64,000 nucleotides of DNA from Lophium mytilinum (taxonomy: Eukaryota): positions 248,001 to 312,000 of the forward strand of contig MU004190.1 of assembly GCA_010093605.1 (NCBI GenBank). Direction: 5' to 3'. Of this stretch, positions 7,240-57,477 are shown one piece after another. Within the stretch, counting starts at the first letter, position 1, and every line of letters starts with the position of its first letter. The position numbers were made by a program, and so were the translations under genes. Below the pieces are notes generated by a model. That model did no database searches, was not told where the DNA came from, and saw only the letters and a list, made by a program, of their open reading frames with translations.

Positions 7240-8801
7240 ATGGCTTCAATCTTCAGAACGTTCCCGCTGCTGCGCCAGGCAGCTCCACGTCTTTCGCGCG
7301 AGTTCTTCACGTGTCGAGCCTGCGTCAAGACTCCCCTTCCGCCTTCCACACGACTATCTCTCCGAAAAGCCCCATTCGCCCAAACCTTCAGGTCCCAGTC
7401 TACACAAGCCCACAGGCCGACTGCGAATAGCCAATCTCCCCTCGGCACTTTGAGCGGTACAATTGGCGGCAAGGCGGATGCGAAATCAATTTCGAAGACG
7501 AGCTCCTTCCCCGAGACGAGCGACAAAGCTGTGGCGTACTGGCTGTTAGGGAGCGCGGCAAGCGTGTTTGGGATTGTCATTCTTGGTGGATTGACTAGGC
7601 TCACCGAGTCTGGGTATGGCATGATACAGAGTTACAGTTCCGAAAGCTAACCTTTTGCAGGCTCAGCATCACAGAATGGCGCCCCGTCACTGGATCCATC
7701 CCTCCCATGACAACTGAAGACTGGGAGACTGAGTTTACAAAATACCGATCTTCGCCTGAATTCACCCTCCTCAATCCGAACATGACCCTCCCCGAGTTTA
7801 AGCAGATATTCTGGATGGAATGGGGACATCGCCTCTGGGGGCGTGTGATCGGTCTCACATTCGTCGTTCCCACTATATACTTCATTGCACGACGTAAGGT
7901 GTCAGTGCCGATGGCCTGGAAGTTAATCGGGATCTCTGGCTTGATTGGCTTCCAGGGCGTAATCGGGTGGTGGATGGTGAAGAGCGGCCTCCACGACGAT
8001 CTATTCGCAAAGGGAAGCCATCCCCGCGTGAGCCAGTACCGTCTGACTACGCATCTAGGCGCTGCTTTCATCGTTTATACCACCATGCTGCTTTCTGGCC
8101 TCTCGATTCTTCGCGAGCGTTCCCTCCTCAAGGACCCAGAAGCTGCCCAGAAGCTATTTGCTACCTTGAAGAATCCCAATTTGCGCCTCTTCCGCGGATC
8201 TGTCACAGCTCTTTCTGTATTGGTCTTCATAACAGCCATGTCTGGTGCTCTCGTCGCTGGTCTTGATGCCGGTCTCATTTACAACGAGTTCCCATATATG
8301 GGTCTGGGACTCACCCCACCTAAAAAGGAACTGTTTGATCCGTTCTACAGCCACGTACCAGACCGGTCGGATCTCTGGTGGCGGAACATGCTCGAGAATC
8401 CGTCGCTAGTACAACTCGATCATCGCATTCTTGCGATGACCACTTTCACGGCTATCATGAGCCTGTTCACATACACACGATACTCATCCCGTGTCAGCGC
8501 CATCCTTCCCAGGAACGCCAAGAAAGGCGTTATGGGCTCTGTCCATCTTGTCTGGATGCAAGTCGCTCTCGGTATTAGCACGCTGATCTACATGGTCCCC
8601 ACTTGGCTAGCTGCGACGCACCAGGCGGGCAGCCTTGCTCTTCTGACTGGTGTACTGGTACTTGGGAGTCGCGTCTCAATGCCGCGCCGCGCTGTCAGGC
8701 TCGTGCAACAGGCTGCTAAACAGCAGTCTACGGCTCTAAGAAGCTCAGGTAAGCGGAGGCTTGAAGTCGGCGTGAAGGGCGTTGAGCAGAAACCAGCGTA
8801 A
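7240..8801 (+). CDS. COX15: Heme A synthase, 2 exons
   Basis: Mitochondrial-type presequence; GGLTRLTESG|LSITEWRP across intron 7614-7660; EWGHRLWGR, HPRVSQYRL, QLDHR and HQAG motifs. Confidence 0.96.
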
Positions 8802-43365: not shown

Positions 43366-44412
43366 TCTGCTAGTATGGATTTCGAATTGAGTAATAGGAG
43401 CCCGTTCATAAGTAGTTTTGATGAAACGAAGAAAAGGAAGAATCGTAAGTCTCGCTAGCCGCTTCCGTACTGGCGCGAGGTGCGGTTTAAGCGATATCCT
43501 TTGCCAACGCCTTCCCTGACCTCTTCCAAGGTTCCCTTTCAGCCTTGTAACTGTTCGTCGCCAGCCGGCCGTTGGTATCGGTTCCACGACGACGTTTAAA
43601 ATATGTATCCAGGCAAATGATACGGGTGTCCCTGCCGGACTTTGATCAGGACGAAAGCGGGGCAGCGATGAATATTGCCGGCCATAGATGCGCTCCGAAA
43701 GCACGTAAACTTCCTCATGTCCCTTGGTCCTTCGCCGATAGCAATGTAGTAAGATCTCGATCGAAGCCTGGTCGCTAGAAGGACTGTGGAGAGTTCACTA
43801 TTAGCAGTATACCAATCTTTCCCCAGATCCTTCGCAGAGGCACGGCGTTAGAATATAGTAGTATCCGACCCGAGAATCGGCTTATTCGCAAGAAAGTTGA
43901 TGGCATATGGTGCGAGTGTGTCCTGTCCTGATTGGGGCTATCCTGGCTGTGCTAGCTTGCTCAGGGAGACGGAAGCTTGTCTTCCCGTGTTTTCAGCATG
44001 CAGGTAGACACGTTCGGTGAACGAGCCCGGAGATCAACCCACGAAAGTCAGCCACAAAGCCGGATCGGTTGGAAAGTAACGCGTTGCGATATCTTGTTTT
44101 TGGCAGATCCAACTCAGCCTTGGTAAAAATAAGTCCAGAAAAGGACTTCCTCCGTTCAAATCCCAGTTATTCCACTTATACTTCAAATATGTGCTATTCT
44201 AGTTCACCGGAAATGTCTACGGCCCCTGCAAGCAACATGCCCCTCCGCACACCTCATCCCCCAAAACCCTTTTTCCACCATGCTCCCCGAAACCCCGTCC
44301 TACTTCGGTAGAGTCATCTATAGCGAGTGGTCTAATTGTCAACTAGACGCTGATTTCAAACGCAAAAGCCACTGGACCTGAAATACCTAGCCCGAGTACA
44401 TTGGACCCTACA

Positions 44413-45350
44413 ATGGATTCAGCCTTGTCCGCGGAAGTATCGAAACGCGATGTAGAAGCAATTCAAAAGCAAAGCCGAATGCCAACTCCAGCTACGACAG
44501 ATTATAGCACTGAGCCATGCTCCAGTCAACGCAACCAACGTCAACGTGGAAATACTGAGCCCGCATCGCCCGACAATCCATCGTCTTCCAAGAACACGCT
44601 AGAGAAGCCCGGGCTCCTAGCTCGCGCAACGAATGACACATGGTTCTGGGAGATCATGAGTCTCCTCTTCAGCATATCATGCCTCGTCGTCGTCGGCGTC
44701 ATCCTCGACGTTTACGATGACCAGACATTGCCGAGTTTGCCATCCGGCATTACCCTCAACACATTAATATCGCTGCTCTCGACTTTCATGGCTTCGGCTT
44801 TGATTGTACCGGTTACCTCTAGTATCTCATAGTTGAAGTGGCTTTGGTTTACTACGAGACGTGGAGGAAGTGGAGGTAGCGGTCGCCGGCTGGCCGATTT
44901 TGAAGAGTTTGACATAGCGAGTAGAGGACCATTCGGGTGCCTGTTGTTCCTGAAGACAGCGTGGAAATCGTAACTTAGCACCCTGTCCAGTGGTGGTCGT
45001 AGATTGCTCAAGAATTCAAATGCTAAACCGCTCGCCATTACTGGAGTTCTAATCACGATCGGCTCCCTTGGAATCCAACCAATGCTCCAGCAATCTATTA
45101 CATACCCCGTTAAATATGTAAGCGTTGGCACTGCCAGCGTTGCGCGAGCTATCAATTATACGCAGTGGTCTCCTTCAGCAATGGGTGCGGACGATATGGG
45201 TGACGGTATTTCTGACCGTAGGGGTGAGCTCCGATGCATCCTCCCATATTTATATTCAGTCCTAGCACTCACTCTGCTCAAATGCAGGCGACATGGTCGT
45301 ATCGATGAAAGCCTCTGTATTGCCTTCTTCTATGGTGCTTTGTCCTTGAA
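44413..45350 (+). pseudogene. DUF3176-like membrane protein, nonsense-disrupted and 3'-truncated
   Basis: WFWEIMS...ITLNTLIS...SSIS*LKWLWF...LADFEEFDIASRGPFG. TAG at 44830 replaces the usual Gln of SQLKW, and recognisable coding sequence fades after ~45350. Confidence 0.75.
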
Positions 45351-45628
45351 GCTAAATAGCCGGCCATACAGGGTCATGGTGAGTGTATTATGGCGGTGGA
45401 GGATAAAGTTGTAATTGCTTGTGTACACCGCCCTACTTAGAGAGAGCATGTAGAATCGATGAGCGATGTAAGTGATCGAATTCGAGGCTACAGAGCATTT
45501 ACGGGGGGGGTATGCAACTATGAAAAAAGGGGTGTGCAGATACTTGTGCTATGTAGGAGCTATTTACTTAAGTAACTAGGACAATGAATGACTTATTAGC
45601 TAAAGCTAAAATGACGTTGTTCGAGGCA

Positions 45629-47532
45629 TCAAAGTTCGCCATGCAGGATAGCACTAAAGTGCTGCTCTAGTCGTGTCAACCTTCAAAGGATCGTTAGTAA
45701 GACACGTAATCACGAGCGACTCCCAGGGCAAGGACTTACTGCTCAATGACTACACGGTTGAAATGACTGTCGATATTCACCACGCTCGTCGCGTACAGAC
45801 TCCCAGTCAGACAGACCTTGACCAGGTCCCTATACGGGCGACCGAACGGAATATTCTCAATCTCCACGAGCACCTCGCCCTCTGTTGGGAGCTGGTCGGT
45901 GAATATCTCCCGGTACTGCAACCCCCTCCCAAGCTCGAAGAGTACAATACCGAGCCTGTGGAAGAGCGTCGCCAGTCTCACATCTCTCGCCCCGAGCAGA
46001 GACTGCGGGAGCTGATTCTTCTTCAAGCAGTCAAAGGGCGTGGCTGCGAGATCGGTCTGCGACGCGAGGGCGGATACGTAAGGTGAAATGCCGTTGCGTT
46101 CGTCGTACTGGCTGTTCGCGGAGCCGAAGAAGTAGAAGTCGTTCGTTTCGAACTGCTCGGAGATCCAGCCTGTCTCGTAGAGATGCAGGACGGAGATCGC
46201 GATGATACATGCGAGCTGTAGCCGCTTCCAGCAAGCGACGAGGGGAGGCACGCCGACTTGTGCTTTCAGAAGCTCGGCGAATGAGCAGCGGGAGAAGGCC
46301 TTTGCGATCAGAGGCGAGAAGGTAGTTGCGCCTGTTATCCCGTGGATGACGATCGTGGTGTGCTGGCTCTTGAAGAGTAGGGAGGCGGGAGGCTCGTTTG
46401 GCTTTAGCTGCTTCGTCTTGATGGCGGCGACAATTTCTTCGAACGTATTGGTCTTTTCCAGGGGAAGGACTGGCGTGGTTATCGCCGACGAGTAGATAGC
46501 TTCTGCGAGGAGCACGAATGGCTCTTCCACGTCCTTGCTGCTAGAAACTAGGAGAGGGAACTTAAACGAGCGGTCCGTTTGGTCAACGTAGTCCACCGGA
46601 CCAAACACACGCTCGAAATAGCCGGAGTCGGCTCGTTCTTTCTCGAGTTTGAAGTCGAGATTATGGCCGTTAGGGACTTGAAGCGCTGTATAGAGAGCTC
46701 TTGCTGCTGCCCGTATGCTACTTGAGCTATCCGGTTTGTTGCCCGCTGCAGATTTGGTCGTCCTGTCAGTTTCACACTGAGTAGAAATTGTTTGTAGAAG
46801 GGCGAGCCAATTATCGATATCGTTGACGAGAGATCTCAACTCTTCCTTGAGCGAGATGGACCATTTGAACTTCGTCCCCGGGCTAAGCTTCTGCTGTAGT
46901 ACCTCTTGAGCGAGCTTGGTTTTTGCTGCAGTCTCATCCGCTGGACCTTCCGCTGTCGACGCAATGCTTAGGTTTCTCTTCTTCTTCCAGATCCCGTTAG
47001 GATCTGAAACAGATAATCGCTTGTACCAACGCGGATTCGATTCTGGTTTCTTTTGCGTTTGTGGCTTCGATGACGGCGAACTACGGCCTGACACGCTAGG
47101 ACTTCGGCTGACAGAGTTTGAGGAAGTTTCTTTCATGGGACTCGGCGGTAGAGATTGCTGACTTGGCCCTTTCTCTATCGATGTGTCTCCTTCAAAATTG
47201 TCGAGGTCGATAGATCGTAACGTTCGAAAGGCTTCCCCAAACTTGACATTGAGCTGGGCGAGGCACTTCAACGCCATTTCACAACCCTCTTCGCCCCAGA
47301 GGTCTTTGAAGCCGTCCTCGAGGTTGTCTTTATGTCGCTGCCGAGCTTTCGTATTCCATGTTCTCTGCCATAATTCAAGCGTGTACTTCTGCGCTTCTAA
47401 CCTTTGAGTTGCGTTGACTAGCTGTTTCCCAGCCTGACTAGAATCGCGGAACAATCTGGCTAGCGTTGTCCCATTTTTAATTGCCAAATCGACAAATCCA
47501 ATGGCAGAGATGACCAAGCCTGCAACCTCCAT
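45629..47532 (-). CDS. HeLo/HET-s N-terminal-like domain plus kinase-like (DUF7580-like) C-terminal domain, 2 exons
   Basis: MEVAGLVISAIG hydrophobic start; RLEAQKYTLELW; KFKWSISLKEELRSLVNDID (HeLo-like end); RLQLACIIAISVLHLYETGWI...FYFF...PY...RLGIVLFELG. Last exon ...LTRLEQHFSAILHGEL. Confidence 0.75.
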
Positions 47533-47964
47533 TCTCCGGGCTGTTTAAAGTTTGTTCACGTCGGAGGGGTGGTGAGAGATATTCGCAGAGATGAGATGCG
47601 GGGCAAAGGTTTCCTACTCTAGGTACAAACTTAAAAAGCAAGCTGAGAAGCCTTACTATCGTTCTATGAAAACAAAGTATTTCTAAAAAAGTAAGTAAAC
47701 CTAAGTAATACGCAAAATATTGAGAGGGATTTAAGTATCAAATAATTCTATTATAAAGTATATAGAGCTTTAAAGATATGTTAAGGGATAGTTCAAGTGC
47801 CCACTAAGTAATGGGAGTCGACTCCCTATAAACCTAGCCATTGTTGGAACGACAGCAAGCCTCATGCGGGGTAATCGCGCGAAGATAGACCTCTGGACGC
47901 TTGGAACATTCATAATAGCCCACTAGGATACCATCCACAGTAACTAGCGACACTCGTAGTCAGA

Positions 47965-49960
47965 ATGGCAGAGATTCCAATATATCTCTCCATTCATACT
48001 CCAGTTGATGTTTCCAGCATCGACCTCACTGGTAGGCAGGAAAGCGACGGCGACGTCAGGGTAAGTGATTGTGTAACGAGATAACGTGAAACCAGACAAC
48101 TGACGTTTGCAAACGCTGTAGAAGACTCCAACTCCAACTATCCAGCTGTTCCATGACAAATATCCAAGCCCGCTTGAATTAGCCACGATCTGCGAAGATG
48201 ACATGGCTGAAATAGTCAAGCACCTAGCCAGACGTTCGACCTCTGCTTCTTTGGCGAATATCGAGGCGATATTGAGCCTCAAAGAATGCCTGGCTCGATT
48301 GAGAGAGTGGAAAAGGTGCCTCCCGCGCGCAGATGGCGACGGCCCTTCATCTGGCGACAGGGATTGGCTTGGCTTGGAGCCCCTTATGTCCAAAATTTCC
48401 AACTTGCTGCGACGACTTGCGGTTCAGCTTCTCCAGACTGGAACACTAATAGGGGGTGGAATAGGTGCGTTGAATTCCTTGTGGTGCTTCTTGGTGCAAA
48501 TGCTTGACGTTAAGGTTGCGTTAACATAACATAGAGCTACGGCTGTCTACAATGAGTGACTTCGTCAATGCTTTGCCTGTAGAAGATTCAGAAGATTCAT
48601 CACAAAGTCGAGGCTCTGGAGCAGAGCTCCACCGGAGCATGACTGGACCAATTCTCGATTCGGGTGCATCAAGGCTACGCGCGGCCGTCGAACAGCTTGA
48701 GGACGTAACAGATTGCCTCTGGAGCTACAAAACCGCTCTCAGCATTACCTCCGAAGCCTATAACCTGTCAATGGCCGATTGGCTTGTAGAGTTGCCGCAG
48801 GAGGTACAAGATAGAGGTAGTTTGTTGGAATCCCACCGCGGCACAACATTGCCAGTGGACGAACATGACTCCGTTGGTGCTGAAGGTGCGTTACCTAGTT
48901 GCTGTAACTTAAGAACCTCACTTAACGTGATATCAGAAGAATCCGGTGAACAACAGACTACTGCTCTAGGGGGTATGGGACCTATTTCCTGCTGCGTTTG
49001 CGAATTCACTAACCACGAGTAGAAATATCGAGAGAGGTTGTTGTACTTCCCCGTAAGAAGTCCTTTGAAAAGATTGACTTGGATGGCATAGCATGTCCAT
49101 TGGCCAGGGAATAGTGAGTAGTTCTGTTCCGAAAATATGGTACTGGCTGATATATTTGTGCAGCCGCAATGGGCATGGTGGGAAGGAATGGAAAGCTATG
49201 CACGACGCCTCCCTCGAGATTGGCGATCGTAAGTTCCCTACTCCTCACGATTAAGATCTCAGCAAATACGCAGTGCGGTGTATGCTAACGCCCGTCAGCG
49301 GACTGGCCAGCGGGCCATGTGGCTTGGTTGGATAAGCCCAAGCTCTCCGTCAAGTCAAGCTACTGCCGGAGGAAGATGGTCGCTGTTGGCGACGGTGCTT
49401 GCGGAAAGACGTGCACTTATATCCAGTTTTCGAAAGGCAATTTCCCGGAAGTCTATGTTCCAACGGTCTTCGAAAACTATGTCGCGGATGTGGAGGTTGA
49501 TGGCAATCATGTTGAGCTCGCTCTATGGGACACGCCTGGTCAAGAAGACTACGACAGACTCCGGCTCTTAATGTACCCTGATTCGCATGCCATCATGATC
49601 AGCTTCTGTATTGATAGCTCAGATTCACTCGTCAATACGGTTGCAAAATGGATCTCGGAGGTGACGCATTTTTGCGCTGGGGTACCAATCCTTTTGGCCG
49701 GATTCAAACACGACCTGAAGCATGACAAAGCGACAATCGAAATGATATCCAAGTGGTCACAGAAGCCGGTGACATATGGTCAAGGACTTGCAGTCGCTAA
49801 GTACATTGGTGCCGCCGCCTACGTCGAATGTTCAGCCAAGACTGGTGCTGGGATTCGAGAGGTTTTCGAAGCGATGACTCGGTTGACGCTCAGGAGCGTC
49901 AAGAAGGCAAAGAAGACTACGGAGGCTAAGCACAAGAACGCATCATGTAACTTAATGTAA
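47965..49960 (+). CDS. Helical N-terminal domain fused to Rho1/RhoA-like GTPase, 6 exons, 564 aa
   Basis: Exons 47965-48060, 48122-48464, 48535-48972, 49023-49113, 49164-49228 and 49299-49960 join in frame (1695 nt) with GT..AG introns. [30 protein letters not shown] and ECSAK motifs, with CaaX CNLM. Confidence 0.8.
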
Positions 49961-50593
49961 ATCGACGGACTGATGGGTTGTTGAGTTTGAATTGGGATGG
50001 TTGCAGATTTAGGGTACGAAATATATGTTAATGACCAGATTGGGACTGGCGCGTTCGTTAAGTACTTCACTAAGTCCAGAAGTAGCGAAAGTGCTTATAG
50101 TAGCCAAACTTGAAACATGTTTCTACCGTATAGTTTCTGAATATACGGACGCCACTCTTGGCAGCGCTATCTCAAGCATAATTTTTCAGCGTATCAGGTC
50201 AACGCCAGCGAGCTGAATTGTGGGCCACCCACCCCCTGAGTTGGCCCGACACCACCGCTAGGACCCACCTTCCAACGCTGTTGAGTTTAGGGGATCAGCG
50301 GGCTTGCCAAGACTGGCGTCCGTATATTCAAAAACTATACGGTACTGCACTAACCGGCTCAGCATGCGCCAGCCTAGAAGAGAATAAAGTTCCTAAACCG
50401 GCAATCGGTCGCACCTAGTTAAGCACCACCTGCATGTTAAGCGGGTGCACCCCGGTTCCGGAGTACAACTTACTTATATACCATACATCTATCCCACGCT
50501 CCTTACATCTTGCTTGACAAACTCTCATACTCTTAACCACTTCTGCCACTTTCAACAACGCAAACCACGAAACTCACACTCAATCATACCACC

Positions 50594-51662: not shown

Positions 51663-52192
51663 ATGCCCGCAACCACCCGCTCCGTCGCCAAAAAAGACGC
51701 CTCCGCTTCCCAACTCCAGCAAACACGGCAAGTACAAAGCGAGGAGCAACATGCGAATGCGAGTGCCCAGGTAAGATGCGAATAACTACAATTACACACA
51801 ACTCAATTTCTACCACAATTCACTGCACCCTTTCCCCTTGTAGAATCCACACATTCACCAGACGAGCATACCTAATCACGTGACCATGAACCCCCTCCTT
51901 CTTCCTCTCCCCATTTCTCACAACAACCAACCCCCTAACACCCCCCTCCCAGGCCGGACTCAACCTTAACCTCCTCGGCGCCGTCTCCGGCGTCTTCGGC
52001 AGCAAATCCAAAAAAACCACCAACAACAACCCAGACGGCTCATCCGTAAGCACTGAAGAGCGTGCCGAGCAAGGCCACGCCTCCGGAAAGGCAGCTGGAA
52101 ACGCGACTGCGATCGGCGCGGCGAATGCCAACTCGGGGCGGCGGAAGATGAAAGAGACACAGGCAGTCGATCATTTGGGGATTGAGGGATAG
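51663..52192 (+). CDS. Small Gly/Ala-rich hypothetical protein, 2 exons, 115 aa
   Basis: Exon 51663-51770 (MPATTRSV...ANASAQ), intron GTAAGA..CTAAC..CAG at 51771-51952, exon 51953-52192 (AGLNLNLLGAVSGVFG...DHLGIEG). Confidence 0.7.
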
Positions 52193-52355: not shown

Positions 52356-55300
52356 TCAATCCACACACCTCCCCACGCCCTCAGCTCCCCTTCTGGCTAC
52401 GGCAACATGCCATGGCACAACCCCGTGTCTACATCCCCTGACTCCCCTCAGCCTTGCCAATAGTCCCAATCCCCGGAACTGCCCAAGCACCTCCTTCAGC
52501 AGATTCTCTGCCGTGCTACGACTCTGCGCCGTACTCGTCCAACTCATGCTACTGGAACTCCTTTCCGTCCCCGCACCAGGGCTAACACCATCACTAGCTC
52601 CAGGAGTCGCCGGAAACGGAGACGTGGCAGCGCGTGTGCCACCGACTGCGCCAACCCAGAGAATATTAACATTGATAACGAGAGGGCCGCGGGAGCTGGG
52701 AGAGCTAGAAGGAGTGGTGGAGCCGGACCCGCGTTTGACAATGAGCCCACTGATGAGCGCGGGGCGGTAGTCGATGGTGGAGTGCGAGTTATGGAGGCGG
52801 TGGGAGAGGATGAGGCCCCAAGTTTCATCGGTGACGTCGACGAGGCGGGCGTCTGGGTCTGCGCTGGGATCTATGGCGTCCGAGGGGGTCGCGGCAGGCG
52901 TGAGGCCGTGCTGGTCGGGGGAGACGCCAGGTTGGGGCGTTGAGACTGGTGTGGAAGCGTTTGGATCTCTAGAGGGAGCGGCGGTGGGCACGGTCGGGAG
53001 AGTAGGGGTAAGAGAGAGTGGCGGATTGGCATCGACGGTTAGAAGCGTGATGAAAAGGTTGAGCTGGGTGGGCGAGGAGGCGAGAAGGATCCATGCTAGA
53101 GATAATATTAGATATGTCAATAGTAAGGTCAACGAAAGCGTACCTTCGATTTCTTCCCGCTCCATCACGCCCGCCTTGGCGATGCAAATGCGCCACGTTA
53201 CCCTCCTGCTGTGTAGGATTTCGATAGTTGTCTGCCATATCTCTCGTGCGATTTCATTGAATGGTCTTCCCCTCGAGCTGTACGATACGACCGCCTGTGA
53301 TTTCCCGCAGCTGTCTGTCCATGCCGCTGTTATCCATGCGCCATCCAAGCTGATCGCATAGCCGAGATGCATATAAGAATTCTCCCGCAGAAGATCGGCG
53401 GGAGGATCAGATGCAAGCTTGAACTGAATGTTTCTCGGTAAAGCCTCCTCCAATTGGATAGATGGAGCAGAGAAAATGCTCAAAGGCGTCTTGTCGGAGT
53501 TGACCGCACTTGGAGGACACCTGTCGTATACCTCGCGAGCTAGACTCATGAGAGTGGTAGGCTCCAGCACTACCGGTGCGTCGAAAGAGGCAATGTACTT
53601 CATCGGTACGATCTGAAGTACTAGATCAGGCCTAGGGGTATTGGCTTGAGCCCCTTGCCCATATGATCCGAATAACGCCCAGAATGCCGAGCAGAGTTCC
53701 CACAGTGCAGCCGGCTCTGCAAAAGGGTCGACCATGTATATTACGAAAGCATCAATCTTCGAGCTGTCGTCCTTCTCTCGCATATCGAGATATGACTGCG
53801 AGAGCTCTTCTCCAAGTCGACGGCATGTCTCTCGTAATGCTTGGAGGACGGTACGTTTTGTAGCTGGACCTGTGACTCGTGTCGGAACTAGGCCGCCTTG
53901 GAAGTCTTCTATGGCATCGCTTCGAACATGAGTCCCTAACTTGCACCCTTCGTATACGATTCCAAGGTTGTTCAAGAACGTTTCTACTCGAGCTGTAAGT
54001 GACTCACTGTGTGGGTACACGCAATACGTTATAATGTTTTTAGGCCCGCTGGTTGGAGCAAGACCCAACGGTTCCCAGAACGACAGGGCGGTAGGGAGAA
54101 GATCCCAAAGGGCATCCGAACGTCGAACACGGATATGAGGAGGAGCAACGGGATAGATCAGATGTCCCGGAGAGCCATTGCCATCCCCTTGCCCGTAAGT
54201 ATTCATTCTCCGTGGGACCGCTTTCGGTAGATGTCCTTTTCCAGCCTGGGGAATATCGGGAAATACGTCCTGGACGCACACGAGCTTTGTAACGTCGCAA
54301 TCTACAGCCTTCTCGAAAAGTTGCCTAACGGTATCCTGAACAGTTTTGCTAGGGTCCAGAGCATCTCCTTCCAGTGGGCGGCCGAAACTAGATCCACTAA
54401 CGAAGCCACCCTCGTCATTGAGAATATCGAGCGTCGATGAAACAATTTGATCAGTCAGGATCTGAGCGACCGCTATCATATCCTTGCCACTCAATAAGAC
54501 CTTCTCGTCAGAGGGAGAGATTTCGATTTGGGAAAGCGTGGTGGGCATTGGAGACAGCCCTGGCGAAGGAAAGGCTACGTCTGCTCGAGCGACTGAAGAA
54601 TGCCTTTCTGAGGGAGAGGGAAGGCTAACTAGCGACCAGTCCCAAGGACTAGGTTCGAAGCCACCAAGACAGGCTTGATCGGTCTGGAGCAAAGGTCGAC
54701 CAAGTATATGCTCGGAGCTATCCCCACCAAGCTTGGAGTCTGCAAAAGACGTAACGGACAGCGGTGTCGCAGTCTCGTCAGCTATCCACTTCCTTTTAGT
54801 CGGCCATGAGGGAACTATCGGTAGGGAATCAAGTTTAGGAGATCGGATTTCGGGCTCGGAGTCTAAGTCGCCGCTCGAAGTGTCACTGATGTCGCCTTCA
54901 TCTATAGGAAGTTCTTCCTCCATGATAGTCCCCTTTCGGCCTAACGACCCGCGGAGGTCTAATAGGACCGAGAAATGTTGAGAAGTCGGCTTCTGCCGCT
55001 TTGAGAGTGGTGTTTGGGACTTGCTAGATACTAAAGATGAAGCATCTCCTCCCTCCGATTCTGGAAAATGAAATCGACCGCCACTGTATTTGGAGTCGGC
55101 GAGACTCATACTCGTGTTGAAAGCCAAGGGGTCGAAAATACTCCCCTTCCGTTGCACAGGAGTTTTGTGTCGACCTTCAGAGGTAACTCGATTGGGCATG
55201 CCATCGGGTCGTGGGAGCAGCTTCTTTATGATCAATTTCGGACTTAGAGGTGGGCTGGGAACATGCTCTTCCTCTTCTGGACTCTGGATTATTGGCTCAT

Positions 55301-57477
55301 CAACAGCCAAAACTCGGGTGCTTTCCTCTCCAGGTTTCGATTCTGTGTATTCGGGCTGATTAGGATCTGACTGAAGTCTTTTACCAGGCCTAAGATCCAG
55401 ATGTCGGTCCGTGGCATTGCCAACTTGTGCCAGAGGTTCAGAGGCAGGTTCCACCTTTAGGTCTTCCTTCTGGTCGTGACTTTCTCCAGCTTGCTGCTGT
55501 GACGTTTCCTCGGGTTGCGCGTCGTCATTTGTTCCTTGGACGCCGTCCATATCGCCAAAGTCGTCACCATCTGGCTCATCAAAGAAATTGAAATCAGCGT
55601 CCGTAACTCCATTCCCATCAAACGTGTCTTCGTCCATATCTTCGAAGAGGTCATCATTTCCACCATGGAGGGAAGAACTGAAGTTCAACTCTGGTTGTGA
55701 ATCGAAAGGATGGGAGAGCTTAGGTGACGTTCCAGGCATGCCCAGAAGCCCGGTCCCATCAGCGTCATTTGTTCCTGGGAGATCGGATGAACGCGGGTTC
55801 GAGTCTTGAGATAGCATGCCGTCCATACTTCCGATCGGACCTGAAATGTGCGGAATATCTCCCGCAGAAGATACAACAGGGCCTTGGGGAGCGACTCCAT
55901 CCGGTGGGGTTGGATAAACACCGCTCACCGGCTGCAGATCACCCCAAGCTCCAGTTCGAGAATATAGTGGGGATGAAGGGTATAGCACATTAGAATCATC
56001 CTTTGTCTGAGCCTCCTCTTCGGCCTGTTGAGCCTTTCGACGAGCTTCTTGCGCTTTATCCCTTTCTGGTTTATTACAGAACCATTGCTGTGCTAAGTCC
56101 AAAGGATCTTGATATCCCATCGACTCAGGCGTCTGAAACCAATCCAAGCCCTGCTCCGCCGAGTTTTGTGAAGTAAGATGGTCTTCAAGTCCTAAAGGAG
56201 TACGGACCGAAGCCGCGGGGTCCCATCCCTGCTTTGAAGAGTCGTAGGAAAAGCAAAGCCCGGATGGCCAAAGCAGTTCATAGGCCTGGTTAGCAAGGGA
56301 TGGGCTATCCAACTCAGACGGTATGGTGTCGGACGCGATTTGAATCCTAGCCCAAGGCTTAGTACCGTAATCCTGCACAAATGAGCCTAAGCCCTTTCTC
56401 GCTAGCCAACTTTTGGCGTGGGTTTTCCAATTATGAATGTCGTCAGCCTCATTTTTGATCCTTGGACGCTTTCGTTGCTCCCTGACGTTTTCGTTATCCC
56501 CATTACTTAGTCCTGAGAGCTCCAACCCAAGAAAGACTGCTAGATTGCCGCTCGGTGCAGTTCGCACGACACTGCCCGGTTTAACTTTCGAGGTTGGCGG
56601 TCCAAGGCTGCTCAGCTGATGCATATCAGGTCGCCACTTCGAACTTGTGGATATCACAAGGGACCCAGCACTGGTCCAATGTACGTCCACAGAAGTCAGC
56701 CATGACGGCTTGTCTGAGAAATCTGACTCTAGGCTTTTTGCGCGAGGCTCGGCGATTGAGAATGATACAAAAGTTCGATAGTTCAAAGGAATCATTCCAT
56801 GGTCTCGAGCTAGGCTGTACGATATGGATGCAACAACTGATGACATGAGTAGCTCATATACAGCGTAAACATCGTACTGTTGTGGCTCGCCACTCCCGCT
56901 GAACGCTAGGCTGATTTGAGAATTTGCCTGTGTGGCACGCAAGTTCCCCGCCTGATTGGAGCGAAGTGCACTTGGAGGGGCGTTTGTCGACGTTGCAGAT
57001 GTGGGAGGATTGGAAGGTCGGGCGGGTGCTCGTGCGAGTTCAGCAGCCCTCACCAATCCTGAAATCTCCGCTAGAAACTCGTCAGTGGTTTTCACAGACC
57101 CTTGATTTGGTACTCACCGTGAAATGCATATCCGTCAACGATAGGAGGTGCTGCAGGGGTCTGTGTAGCCTTTTCTGGCGTAATAGGTCGAAATAGCCAA
57201 AGCCATGATCGCGCAGTGTCATGGAGAACCAAATGGCGGGCTTGCCTAAGAGTGCATTCGACAGTGCCTAGATCCGCAGCTAGCCCTGTCTTTTCATCTG
57301 ATGGACTCGGAGGGGAATTCGCCGTTCTTTTGATTGAGAATGCCTGGTATGCGACAGCTTCAAATTCGCCCTAGTAAGCAGATGTTAGTGTCGCTATCGA
57401 TCACTACACGAAGGTAATCGCAATGGGGTACTTACGACAGCTTGCACGTTAGTGTTGCAAGTCTTGACGAATTCCAT
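52356..57477 (-). CDS. MED13: Mediator complex subunit 13 (Srb9/Ssn2), multi-exon
   Basis: Start MEFVKTCNTN at 57477; VYPTPPDG, VTDADFNFFDEP, LSFWEPLGLAP..GPKN, HLGYAISLDGAWITAAWTD and PWHVA motifs. Confidence 0.93.

Follow-up and report, generated by a model that had tools for sequence, protein, structure and literature searches.

A 64,000-nucleotide stretch of the Lophium mytilinum contig MU004190.1 (GCA_010093605.1, positions 248,001 to 312,000; the whole stretch is called the window here) carries two divergent genes that form a real, conserved and apparently undescribed two-gene unit, which we refer to as the cassette. The minus-strand gene encodes an MLKL-like protein, here termed the executioner, and the plus-strand gene encodes a partner in which a helical bundle is fused to a small GTPase (Table 1). 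The most surprising feature of the cassette is that the type of this GTPase changes between loci, among Rho1, Rac and Ras, which makes a decoy hypothesis directly testable. We read the cassette as a sensor/executioner pair that works without a nucleotide-binding leucine-rich repeat receptor (NLR) and in which the GTPase serves as an integrated decoy, and we give this reading a probability of roughly one half; the binding of the two proteins, the cell death and its trigger are what we infer. A first-pass annotation of the window had proposed such a guard/decoy module; the layout, the conserved pairing and the variable GTPase fit a decoy, and rival readings remain graded beside it below.

The start codons, which that annotation had placed about 430 bp apart, lie at 47530-47532 (CAT, the minus-strand ATG) and at 47965, separated by 432 bases, and adjacent homologues, on which its proposal depended, were found head-to-head in five further lineages. 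A metagenome scan for the executioner returned at least 13 loci. Among the 13 listed, seven (L001, L003, L004, L006, L008, L009 and L010) carried a head-to-head GTPase-fusion gene, and the pair was present in every listed locus having both upstream DNA and a near-whole executioner (7/7). These seven represent five lineages besides the window (L001 and L004 are near-identical, L009 and L010 are close) and reach down to 31% executioner identity, with a start-to-start distance of about 190-480 nt in L003, L006, L008, L009 and L010. The other listed loci comprised four without upstream DNA and two partnerless relics (L012 and L013). Because the head-to-head arrangement recurs beside flanking genes that differ from locus to locus, the pairing is more than chance. 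Six additional pairs can be inferred from executioner and partner records that sit on contigs of equal size (4994, 6049, 7485, 7519, 9277 and 84946; 23 versus 34 sizes compared), given that 0 of 200,000 resamples reached even four matches. Named hosts of either gene belong to the Dothideomycetes, Pezizomycetes and Lecanoromycetes. The executioner is rare (28 matches among 8000 candidates scored), and viral contigs gave a single weak match (25%, 2e-5, L014).

The spliced executioner product is identical to the public P0001, a hypothetical protein of Lophium mytilinum (Dothideomycetes). Its AlphaFold model (pLDDT 67, pTM 0.55) has helices at residues 3-27, 32-64, 71-106 and 226-261, forming a four-helix bundle that a disordered insert (110-225) splits ahead of helix 4, and a two-lobed kinase fold of the DUF7580 family at about 270-611, with the protein terminating in the kinase C-lobe. 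DUF7580 is the sole Pfam match of the window protein (26.2 bits; cut-off 27) and was matched in all 19 aligned homologues. Foldseek placed protein kinases at the top for this C-terminal domain, which structure comparison also matched to the PAN3 pseudokinase. HRD and DFG are absent from 19/19 rows, the catalytic-loop columns reading I-S-E-Q/H and the post-loop motif P-Y-V/I-S, where the motif positions were assigned by eye using the alignment together with the model. Neither the cassette nor the flanking open reading frames (ORFs) scanned yielded a RIPK3-like kinase.

The N-terminus had been called HeLo-like in the first-pass annotation, and as a Pfam assignment this stands only at the level of the family, where PF14479 (HeLo) was matched in 15 of the 19 homologues at E≤0.1 (best 1.3e-5); the window protein itself gave no match to PF14479 or Helo_like_N at E≤0.1. 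By its modelled four-helix bundle with a hydrophobic helix 1, the N-terminus is HeLo-related. An Atlas feature search with residues 1-115 scored 0.96 against a cluster with 29% PF14479. Helix 1 starts at the initiator methionine in 19/19 aligned homologues and has a mean best 19-residue hydropathy of 1.37 (1.65 in the window); by analogy with HeLo and MLKL proteins it is a candidate membrane-inserting helix. In structure comparisons (VIA) the bundle matched the Sw-5b SD (Z 12.1), Rx-CC (Z 10.9; root-mean-square deviation, rmsd, 2.3; 106/107 aligned), the MLKL N-domain (Z 9.0) and NRG1.1 CC-R (Z 8.7), values below the Z of about 13 under which helical bundles are not diagnostic. The bundle fold alone is thus not diagnostic, since unrelated bundles match equally, such as Sla2 at Z 12.1. 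Over both domains together, MLKL (4btf) aligned across 277 residues (Z 8.7, rmsd 16.5) and AtMLKL3 across 302 (Z 8.9, rmsd 20). By its modelled layout of a four-helix bundle and a dead kinase the executioner is MLKL-like, and it would be expected to kill.

For the partner gene, a contig of run X1, which we take by guess to be RNA, exactly skips two of the six introns (49114-49163 and 49229-49298, with GT..AG ends), as X1 contigs likewise skip introns in neighbouring genes; of the runs listed for this DNA, none is on record as RNA. X1 contigs reach neither partner exons 1-4 nor the executioner intron, and introns 1-4 of the partner are predicted. The fusion is nevertheless independent of our splice model, because in L009 and L010 a single exon encodes the entire helical domain together with the first strand of the GTPase, and L004 carries helix 4 and the whole GTPase inside one 408-codon frame. 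On the strength of these homologues we rejected a mis-splicing artefact, and the earlier description of the gene at 47965 as a Rho fusion was borne out. Protein searches with the partner or the bundle profile did not find an annotated Lophium partner protein, and the public gene model may be split.

Additional to what had been described before, the Rho partner bears a four-helix bundle of its own, and no NLR is involved. The bundle matched no Pfam family. In the model of an orthologue, P0035, it spans residues 39-62, 68-102, 112-139 and 157-186 (local pLDDT mostly 70-90) and resembles the Sw-5b SD (12.7), NRG1.1 (10.0), AtMLKL3 (8.9) and MLA13 (8.6). At the profile level, the partner bundle showed no similarity to the executioner alignment. 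Variable extensions precede helix 1, there is no conserved Met-proximal hydrophobic helix, and the first helix is somewhat less hydrophobic than that of the executioner (mean 1.00 vs 1.37). The partner-bundle profile retrieved 41 proteins among 1.84 billion representatives, five with a GTPase P-loop, two ending at the first GTPase strand and 31 without an informative Pfam domain, mostly exon-sized pieces; the remaining three (P0181, P0190 and P0191) were unrelated repetitive proteins and were dropped. Within this set no true homologue carried another fused Pfam domain, and a word-index search with the same profile returned P0035 as its sole match. Co-folding of P0004 with residues 30-195 of P0035 returned no verdict (score 0.00, in a run made without alignments and with an uncertain partner fold). 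As a separate observation, a short conserved linker motif, G-H/S/Y-V-x-W, lies just before the GTPase (49299-49330), often after PPPY, and recurs in Rho1- and Rac-type partners; it might form a strand within the molecule or be recognised by a WW-domain ligase.

The window GTPase is nearest to fungal Rho1 (272 bits). It retains G14, K18, T19, Y34, T37, N41, Q63, K118 and D120 (RhoA numbering). Its catalytic motifs are all intact, as is its CAAX tail, and it deviates from canonical Rho1 in A61P and in the Phe of G4. Outside the switches, 95 of 142 positions agree with ascomycete Rho1, compared with 117-122 for Rho1 of other phyla (108 in P0051). Canonical Rho1 is a stand-alone protein of about 190 residues and the window GTPase bears an N-terminal extension of about 345; we rejected a housekeeping Rho1 identity on the basis of this extension and the 95/142 identity. 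Across the aligned partners, the P-loop, T37 and Q63 are present in 13/13, and the G4 Lys is lost in three.

We then compared GTPase types between cassettes. The best PDB match was Rho1 for the window GTPase, Rac1 for P0094, L004 and P0161, and H/K-Ras for the first GTPase exon of L008 (39 residues). P0094 carries Rac1 motifs end to end; P0136 had no PDB match at the strict 1e-58 cut-off, and its type comes from the tree alone. The L008 partner can be spliced to about 427 residues ending in CVIM, and its bundle aligned end-to-end with a family profile built without L008 at 12.3 bits, a score that 14 helical decoys (≤3.9) did not approach and that 1 of 988 scored shuffles exceeded. The executioner tree places all three Rac-partnered rows within a 99/99 clade nested among Rho1-partnered rows, two of the three Rac-partner links resting on equal contig size, and the Ras-partnered executioner sits on a long, deep branch. 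The bundle tree is poorly resolved (2/12 branches starred) and is therefore unfit for counting GTPase switches. Branch lengths of partner GTPases are 0.26-1.13, as against 0-0.16 in seven of eight canonical fungal Rho1 rows (P0051, 0.39). Between L009 and L010, the exon encoding the P-loop and switches shows non-synonymous change (pN) of 0.070 versus 0.003-0.009 in the executioner, with synonymous change (pS) of 0.04-0.10; its amino-acid changes number 13.5 at 194 sites against 23 at 1642 elsewhere (p=4e-5), and the non-synonymous to synonymous contrast with the executioner gave p=0.037. The change of GTPase type, which the first-pass annotation had not noticed, fits an integrated decoy.

If the cassette is such a pair, the partner would be anchored at the membrane through a prenylated CAAX tail, its spare copy of a housekeeping small GTPase would serve as bait, and its bundle would couple it to the MLKL-like protein. 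A foreign activity, perhaps a bacterial or mycoparasite toxin, a mimic of a guanine nucleotide exchange factor or GTPase-activating protein, or a protease, would alter the nucleotide state or the switch residues of the bait. This alteration would lift the restraint that holds the pseudokinase or turn it into an activating contact, and the executioner would then expose helix 1, oligomerise and permeabilise the membrane of the attacked hyphal compartment. The conserved pair with its changing GTPase suggests a tripwire through which tampering with a cell's signalling proteins leads to the death of that cell. The fuller version, a minimal NLR-free paired immune receptor with bundle-to-bundle wiring, a prenylated sensor and an exchangeable Rho1/Rac/Ras bait re-templated from host genes, we advance tentatively.

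Several observations weigh against a decoy-based pair. To those already given, that the window executioner has no HeLo match of its own and that its bundle scores fall in the non-diagnostic range, we add that no partner lay within 8 kb of the decayed executioner fragments L012 and L013, and that the Paraphoma executioner and partner records are on contigs of unequal size, which may reflect two assemblies or absent linkage. Switch-region conservation does not separate the partners (window 31/35, Rho4-like controls 29-32/35). Y34, T37, N41, Q63 and the CAAX tail, which we take to be sites modified by toxins, are kept in the Rho4-like controls too, so that their conservation is non-discriminating. 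The Ras type comes from one locus, L008, with its bundle score of only 12.3 bits. The 12 non-Ras partner GTPases cluster apart from canonical Rho1 (98.9/93) in a tree that contained no Rac reference, and they share L21, C83, V115, N117 and M157, unlike canonical Rho1 or RhoA. Because these partners share core changes and group together, the Rac type is possibly a mosaic; the sequences may reflect replacement followed by convergence, or gene conversion, and not necessarily a clean swap. The L009/L010 excess was seen in one pair only, with a pN/pS of 0.73 (<1) and p=0.11 against all other regions, and the P0159 cluster (8 members) showed no excess in the P-loop/switch exon. Finally, we found no paper in the literature on a natural effector that modifies a fungal Rho; the yeast reports use yeast as a surrogate host.

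The first rival explanation, which we consider somewhat unlikely, is that the cassette acts in het-like allorecognition or as a selfish toxin-antidote, in which the partner neutralises a constitutively dangerous MLKL-like protein and death follows fusion with a strain carrying a different allele or none. The GTPase would then be a membrane anchor with a variable specificity surface and not a bait. The close divergent linkage, the patchy distribution and the changing flanks all speak for it, as do the excess of amino-acid change that L009/L010 show in the GTPase exon and the apparent joint loss in L001/L004 of the 5' ends of both genes, helix 1 included, as in a disarmed cassette. It also shares the two-gene logic of het-v, where an MLKL/HeLo-TUDOR protein is paired with a methyltransferase (PMC9262711). 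An anchor or tag, on the other hand, need not be redrawn from Rho1, Rac and Ras with P-loop, T37 and Q63 kept in 13/13. Since het systems arise out of guard pairs in published models (PMC10197012), allorecognition and an integrated decoy can both hold.

An improbable further alternative is an endogenous switch, in which the partner reads the cell's own Rho/Ras regulators, for example upon cell-wall damage or in response to septal or developmental signals, and sets off the MLKL-like protein, or signals non-lethally through the pseudokinase as an effector-like scaffold. The intact catalytic motifs and CAAX of the window protein would suit such a role, as would splicing of the partner under the conditions of run X1, if that is RNA. 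Yet a dedicated physiological input would be expected to be stable and the GTPase type varies among cassettes, the G4 Lys is lost in 3/13 partners and the window carries A61P, and the cassette is as rare as the 28 executioner matches and 41 partner-domain matches given above indicate. Very improbable is the hitch-hiking of two functionally unlinked genes on a mobile or accessory segment, which would account for the partnerless L012/L013 and the unequal Paraphoma contigs and needs no interaction of the two proteins, itself an inferred one, but not for an orientation and a spacing below 500 bases kept down to 31% executioner identity while other neighbours change, nor for a partner bundle seen in this architecture only.

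The integrated-decoy pair that we favour can be set beside several known systems. The executioner is like MLKL, AtMLKL3 and the fungal HELL-kinase and -pseudokinase proteins in joining an N-terminal four-helix bundle to a catalytically dead kinase fold; HELL domains on kinase or pseudokinase proteins are noted in a 2025 review (PMC12881547). In contrast to MLKL, the cassette has no RIPK3-like kinase and its dedicated partner is a bundle-GTPase fusion, and the executioner bundle is split by a disordered insert of about 115 residues before helix 4. With the head-to-head NLR pairs of plants that carry integrated decoys, it shares a divergent pair and a short spacer; in the sensor/helper model, one member carries an integrated host-target copy that varies, and the other an intact death domain (PMC12258605). 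We rejected membership of such pairs, because neither protein has NB-ARC/NACHT or repeats, a difference from the plant proteins: no Pfam match to these domains was found in either gene, and other folds account for both models. Head-to-head NLR pairs are rare in the Sordariales, at 13 of 225 two-gene clusters (PMC12258605).

Over 30 virulence factors target Rho GTPases, animals have guards for them, and the classes of modification have been reviewed (PMC8084149). Pyrin, NOD1 and related animal guards resemble the cassette in proposed logic, namely death or defence upon tampering with a Rho switch (PMC8084149); they watch the real GTPase indirectly via kinases, whereas the cassette fuses a spare GTPase to a dedicated partner, and no domains are shared. 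Fungal death pathways occur as clusters of two to three genes (PMC12881547, PMC10197012), and het-v (HET-Va/HET-Vb), het-S/nwd2, gasdermin/protease and plp-1/sec-9 likewise encode an executioner beside its regulator, HET-Vb bearing an MLKL/HeLo domain (PMC10197012, PMC9262711). The regulator of the cassette differs from theirs in being a small-GTPase fusion and not an NLR, protease, methyltransferase or SNARE.

A second architecture comes close to that of the partner. Among 120 rows listed in one of the protein searches, 10 are single-chain fusions of PF17111 (Helo_like_N) to Rho (P0100, P0105, P0106, P0109, P0111, P0118, P0126, P0131, P0132 and P0137), with a helical N-terminal domain and a divergent Rho1-type GTPase as in the partner. 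PF17111 itself was found in 0/16 rows of the partner domain at E≤1, the lead being an Atlas feature score alone (0.91), and hhalign of the partner bundle against these fusions gave a probability of 0.1%. Their GTPases form a clade separate from that of the partner, and their tails, among those inspected, are mostly not CAAX. They are probably an independent fusion, and we found no paper on them in the literature; death-domain-like proteins or kinases seem to have acquired Rho1 repeatedly. Fusions of a kinase with Rho were also noticed in basidiomycetes and Glomeromycota (e.g. P0079, P0099, P0113 and P0130).

No description of the two-gene cassette was found in the literature, of which most subscription journals lay outside our coverage; domain-architecture tables that supplement surveys of fungal NLR/HeLo proteins could list the two proteins. 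The available main text of PMC9815663 does not mention Ras, Rho or GTPase, and the words 'GTPase' and 'decoy' are absent from the available parts of PMC12881547 and PMC10197012. Guard and decoy models are often invoked for fungal death genes, with mechanism and a role beyond allorecognition still to be established (PMC12881547, PMC10197012). The cassette opens the idea to a direct test, since its genes are two and short and the mutants of such GTPases are well understood, and it offers a candidate for what activates HeLo-DUF7580 (fungal MLKL-like) proteins, which are unstudied; no paper on DUF7580 was found in the literature searched. If our reading is true, decoy surveillance of Rho/Ras switches would have arisen in fungi independently of animals and plants. 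On the fuller, tentative version, effector-triggered immunity that relies on a decoy against toxins aimed at GTPases would have its first fungal example here, and the repertoire of baits would show which hubs fungal antagonists attack.

Table 1. Features of the cassette, in window coordinates.
Feature	Position	Strand	Description
Executioner-like gene, 614 aa	45629..47532	-	exons 47532-45740, 45680-45629
Executioner intron, 59 nt	45681..45739	-	GTAAGT ... branch site ... AAG
Executioner helix 1, residues 1-27	47452..47532	-	hydrophobic
Intergenic spacer	47533..47964	.	432 nt, AT-richer; GC 0.41 over 47501-48000
Partner gene, 547-aa model	47965..49960	+	seven exons, six canonical introns, single open frame ending CNLM
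Partner exons	47965-48060, 48122-48464, 48535-48885, 48937-48972, 49023-49113, 49164-49228, 49299-49960	+	splice model
Partner four-helix bundle	48161..48776	+	exon 2 encodes helices 1-3; exon 3 encodes helix 4 with its 10-residue motif
Rho1-type small GTPase domain	49355..49960	+	P-loop GDGACGKT, G4 GFKHD, G5 ECSAK, CAAX CNLM

The spacer is predicted to be a shared divergent promoter region, probably serving both genes. It is plausible that the region is an accessory tract, as had been proposed: between COX15 (7599-8798) and Med13 (52359-57113), a Pfam family was found in one of 11 long ORFs scanned (Thg1), and further domains found in this segment are DUF6536, a fungal transcription factor, GFA and a broken DUF3176. 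No clear signal of repeat-induced point mutation was found across the gene pair (composite index ≤0.28).

Elsewhere in the window, ten ORFs of 190-500 aa at 9712-34276 have no Pfam family. Directly downstream of the executioner, a DUF3176 membrane-protein gene (44347-45414, plus strand) has an in-frame stop within its conserved domain and is a probable pseudogene. Downstream of the partner gene, several X1 contigs align at 50123-50344 with 88-95% identity and loose ends, marking a short repeated genome element. A contig over the Med13 region (52359-57435) continues as far as about 51690 and leaves out 51766-51947, whose GT..AG ends lie on the strand opposite Med13; this contig, with its junction at 51765-51948, is a product of overlapping convergent transcripts assembled together.

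At other loci, both genes seem to lack their 5' ends in L001 (5441-6150) and L004 (5357-6066), with no executioner helix 1 and no partner start codon; in L001 the partner linker is also frameshifted, and in L004 a stop interrupts the executioner, which points to a disarmed copy or an assembly error. The executioner fragments of L012 (8001-8189) and L013 (8001-8745) lie beside an SMC-like gene recognised by eye, with a piece of an RNase H retroelement upstream of the fragment in L012. Other genes of a defence-like kind neighbour some cassettes: a NACHT/DUF7791 NLR-like gene stands beside the cassette in L007 (2219-4807), and an ankyrin protein and a LysM-GH18 chitinase are encoded beside that of L001 (8350-14004).

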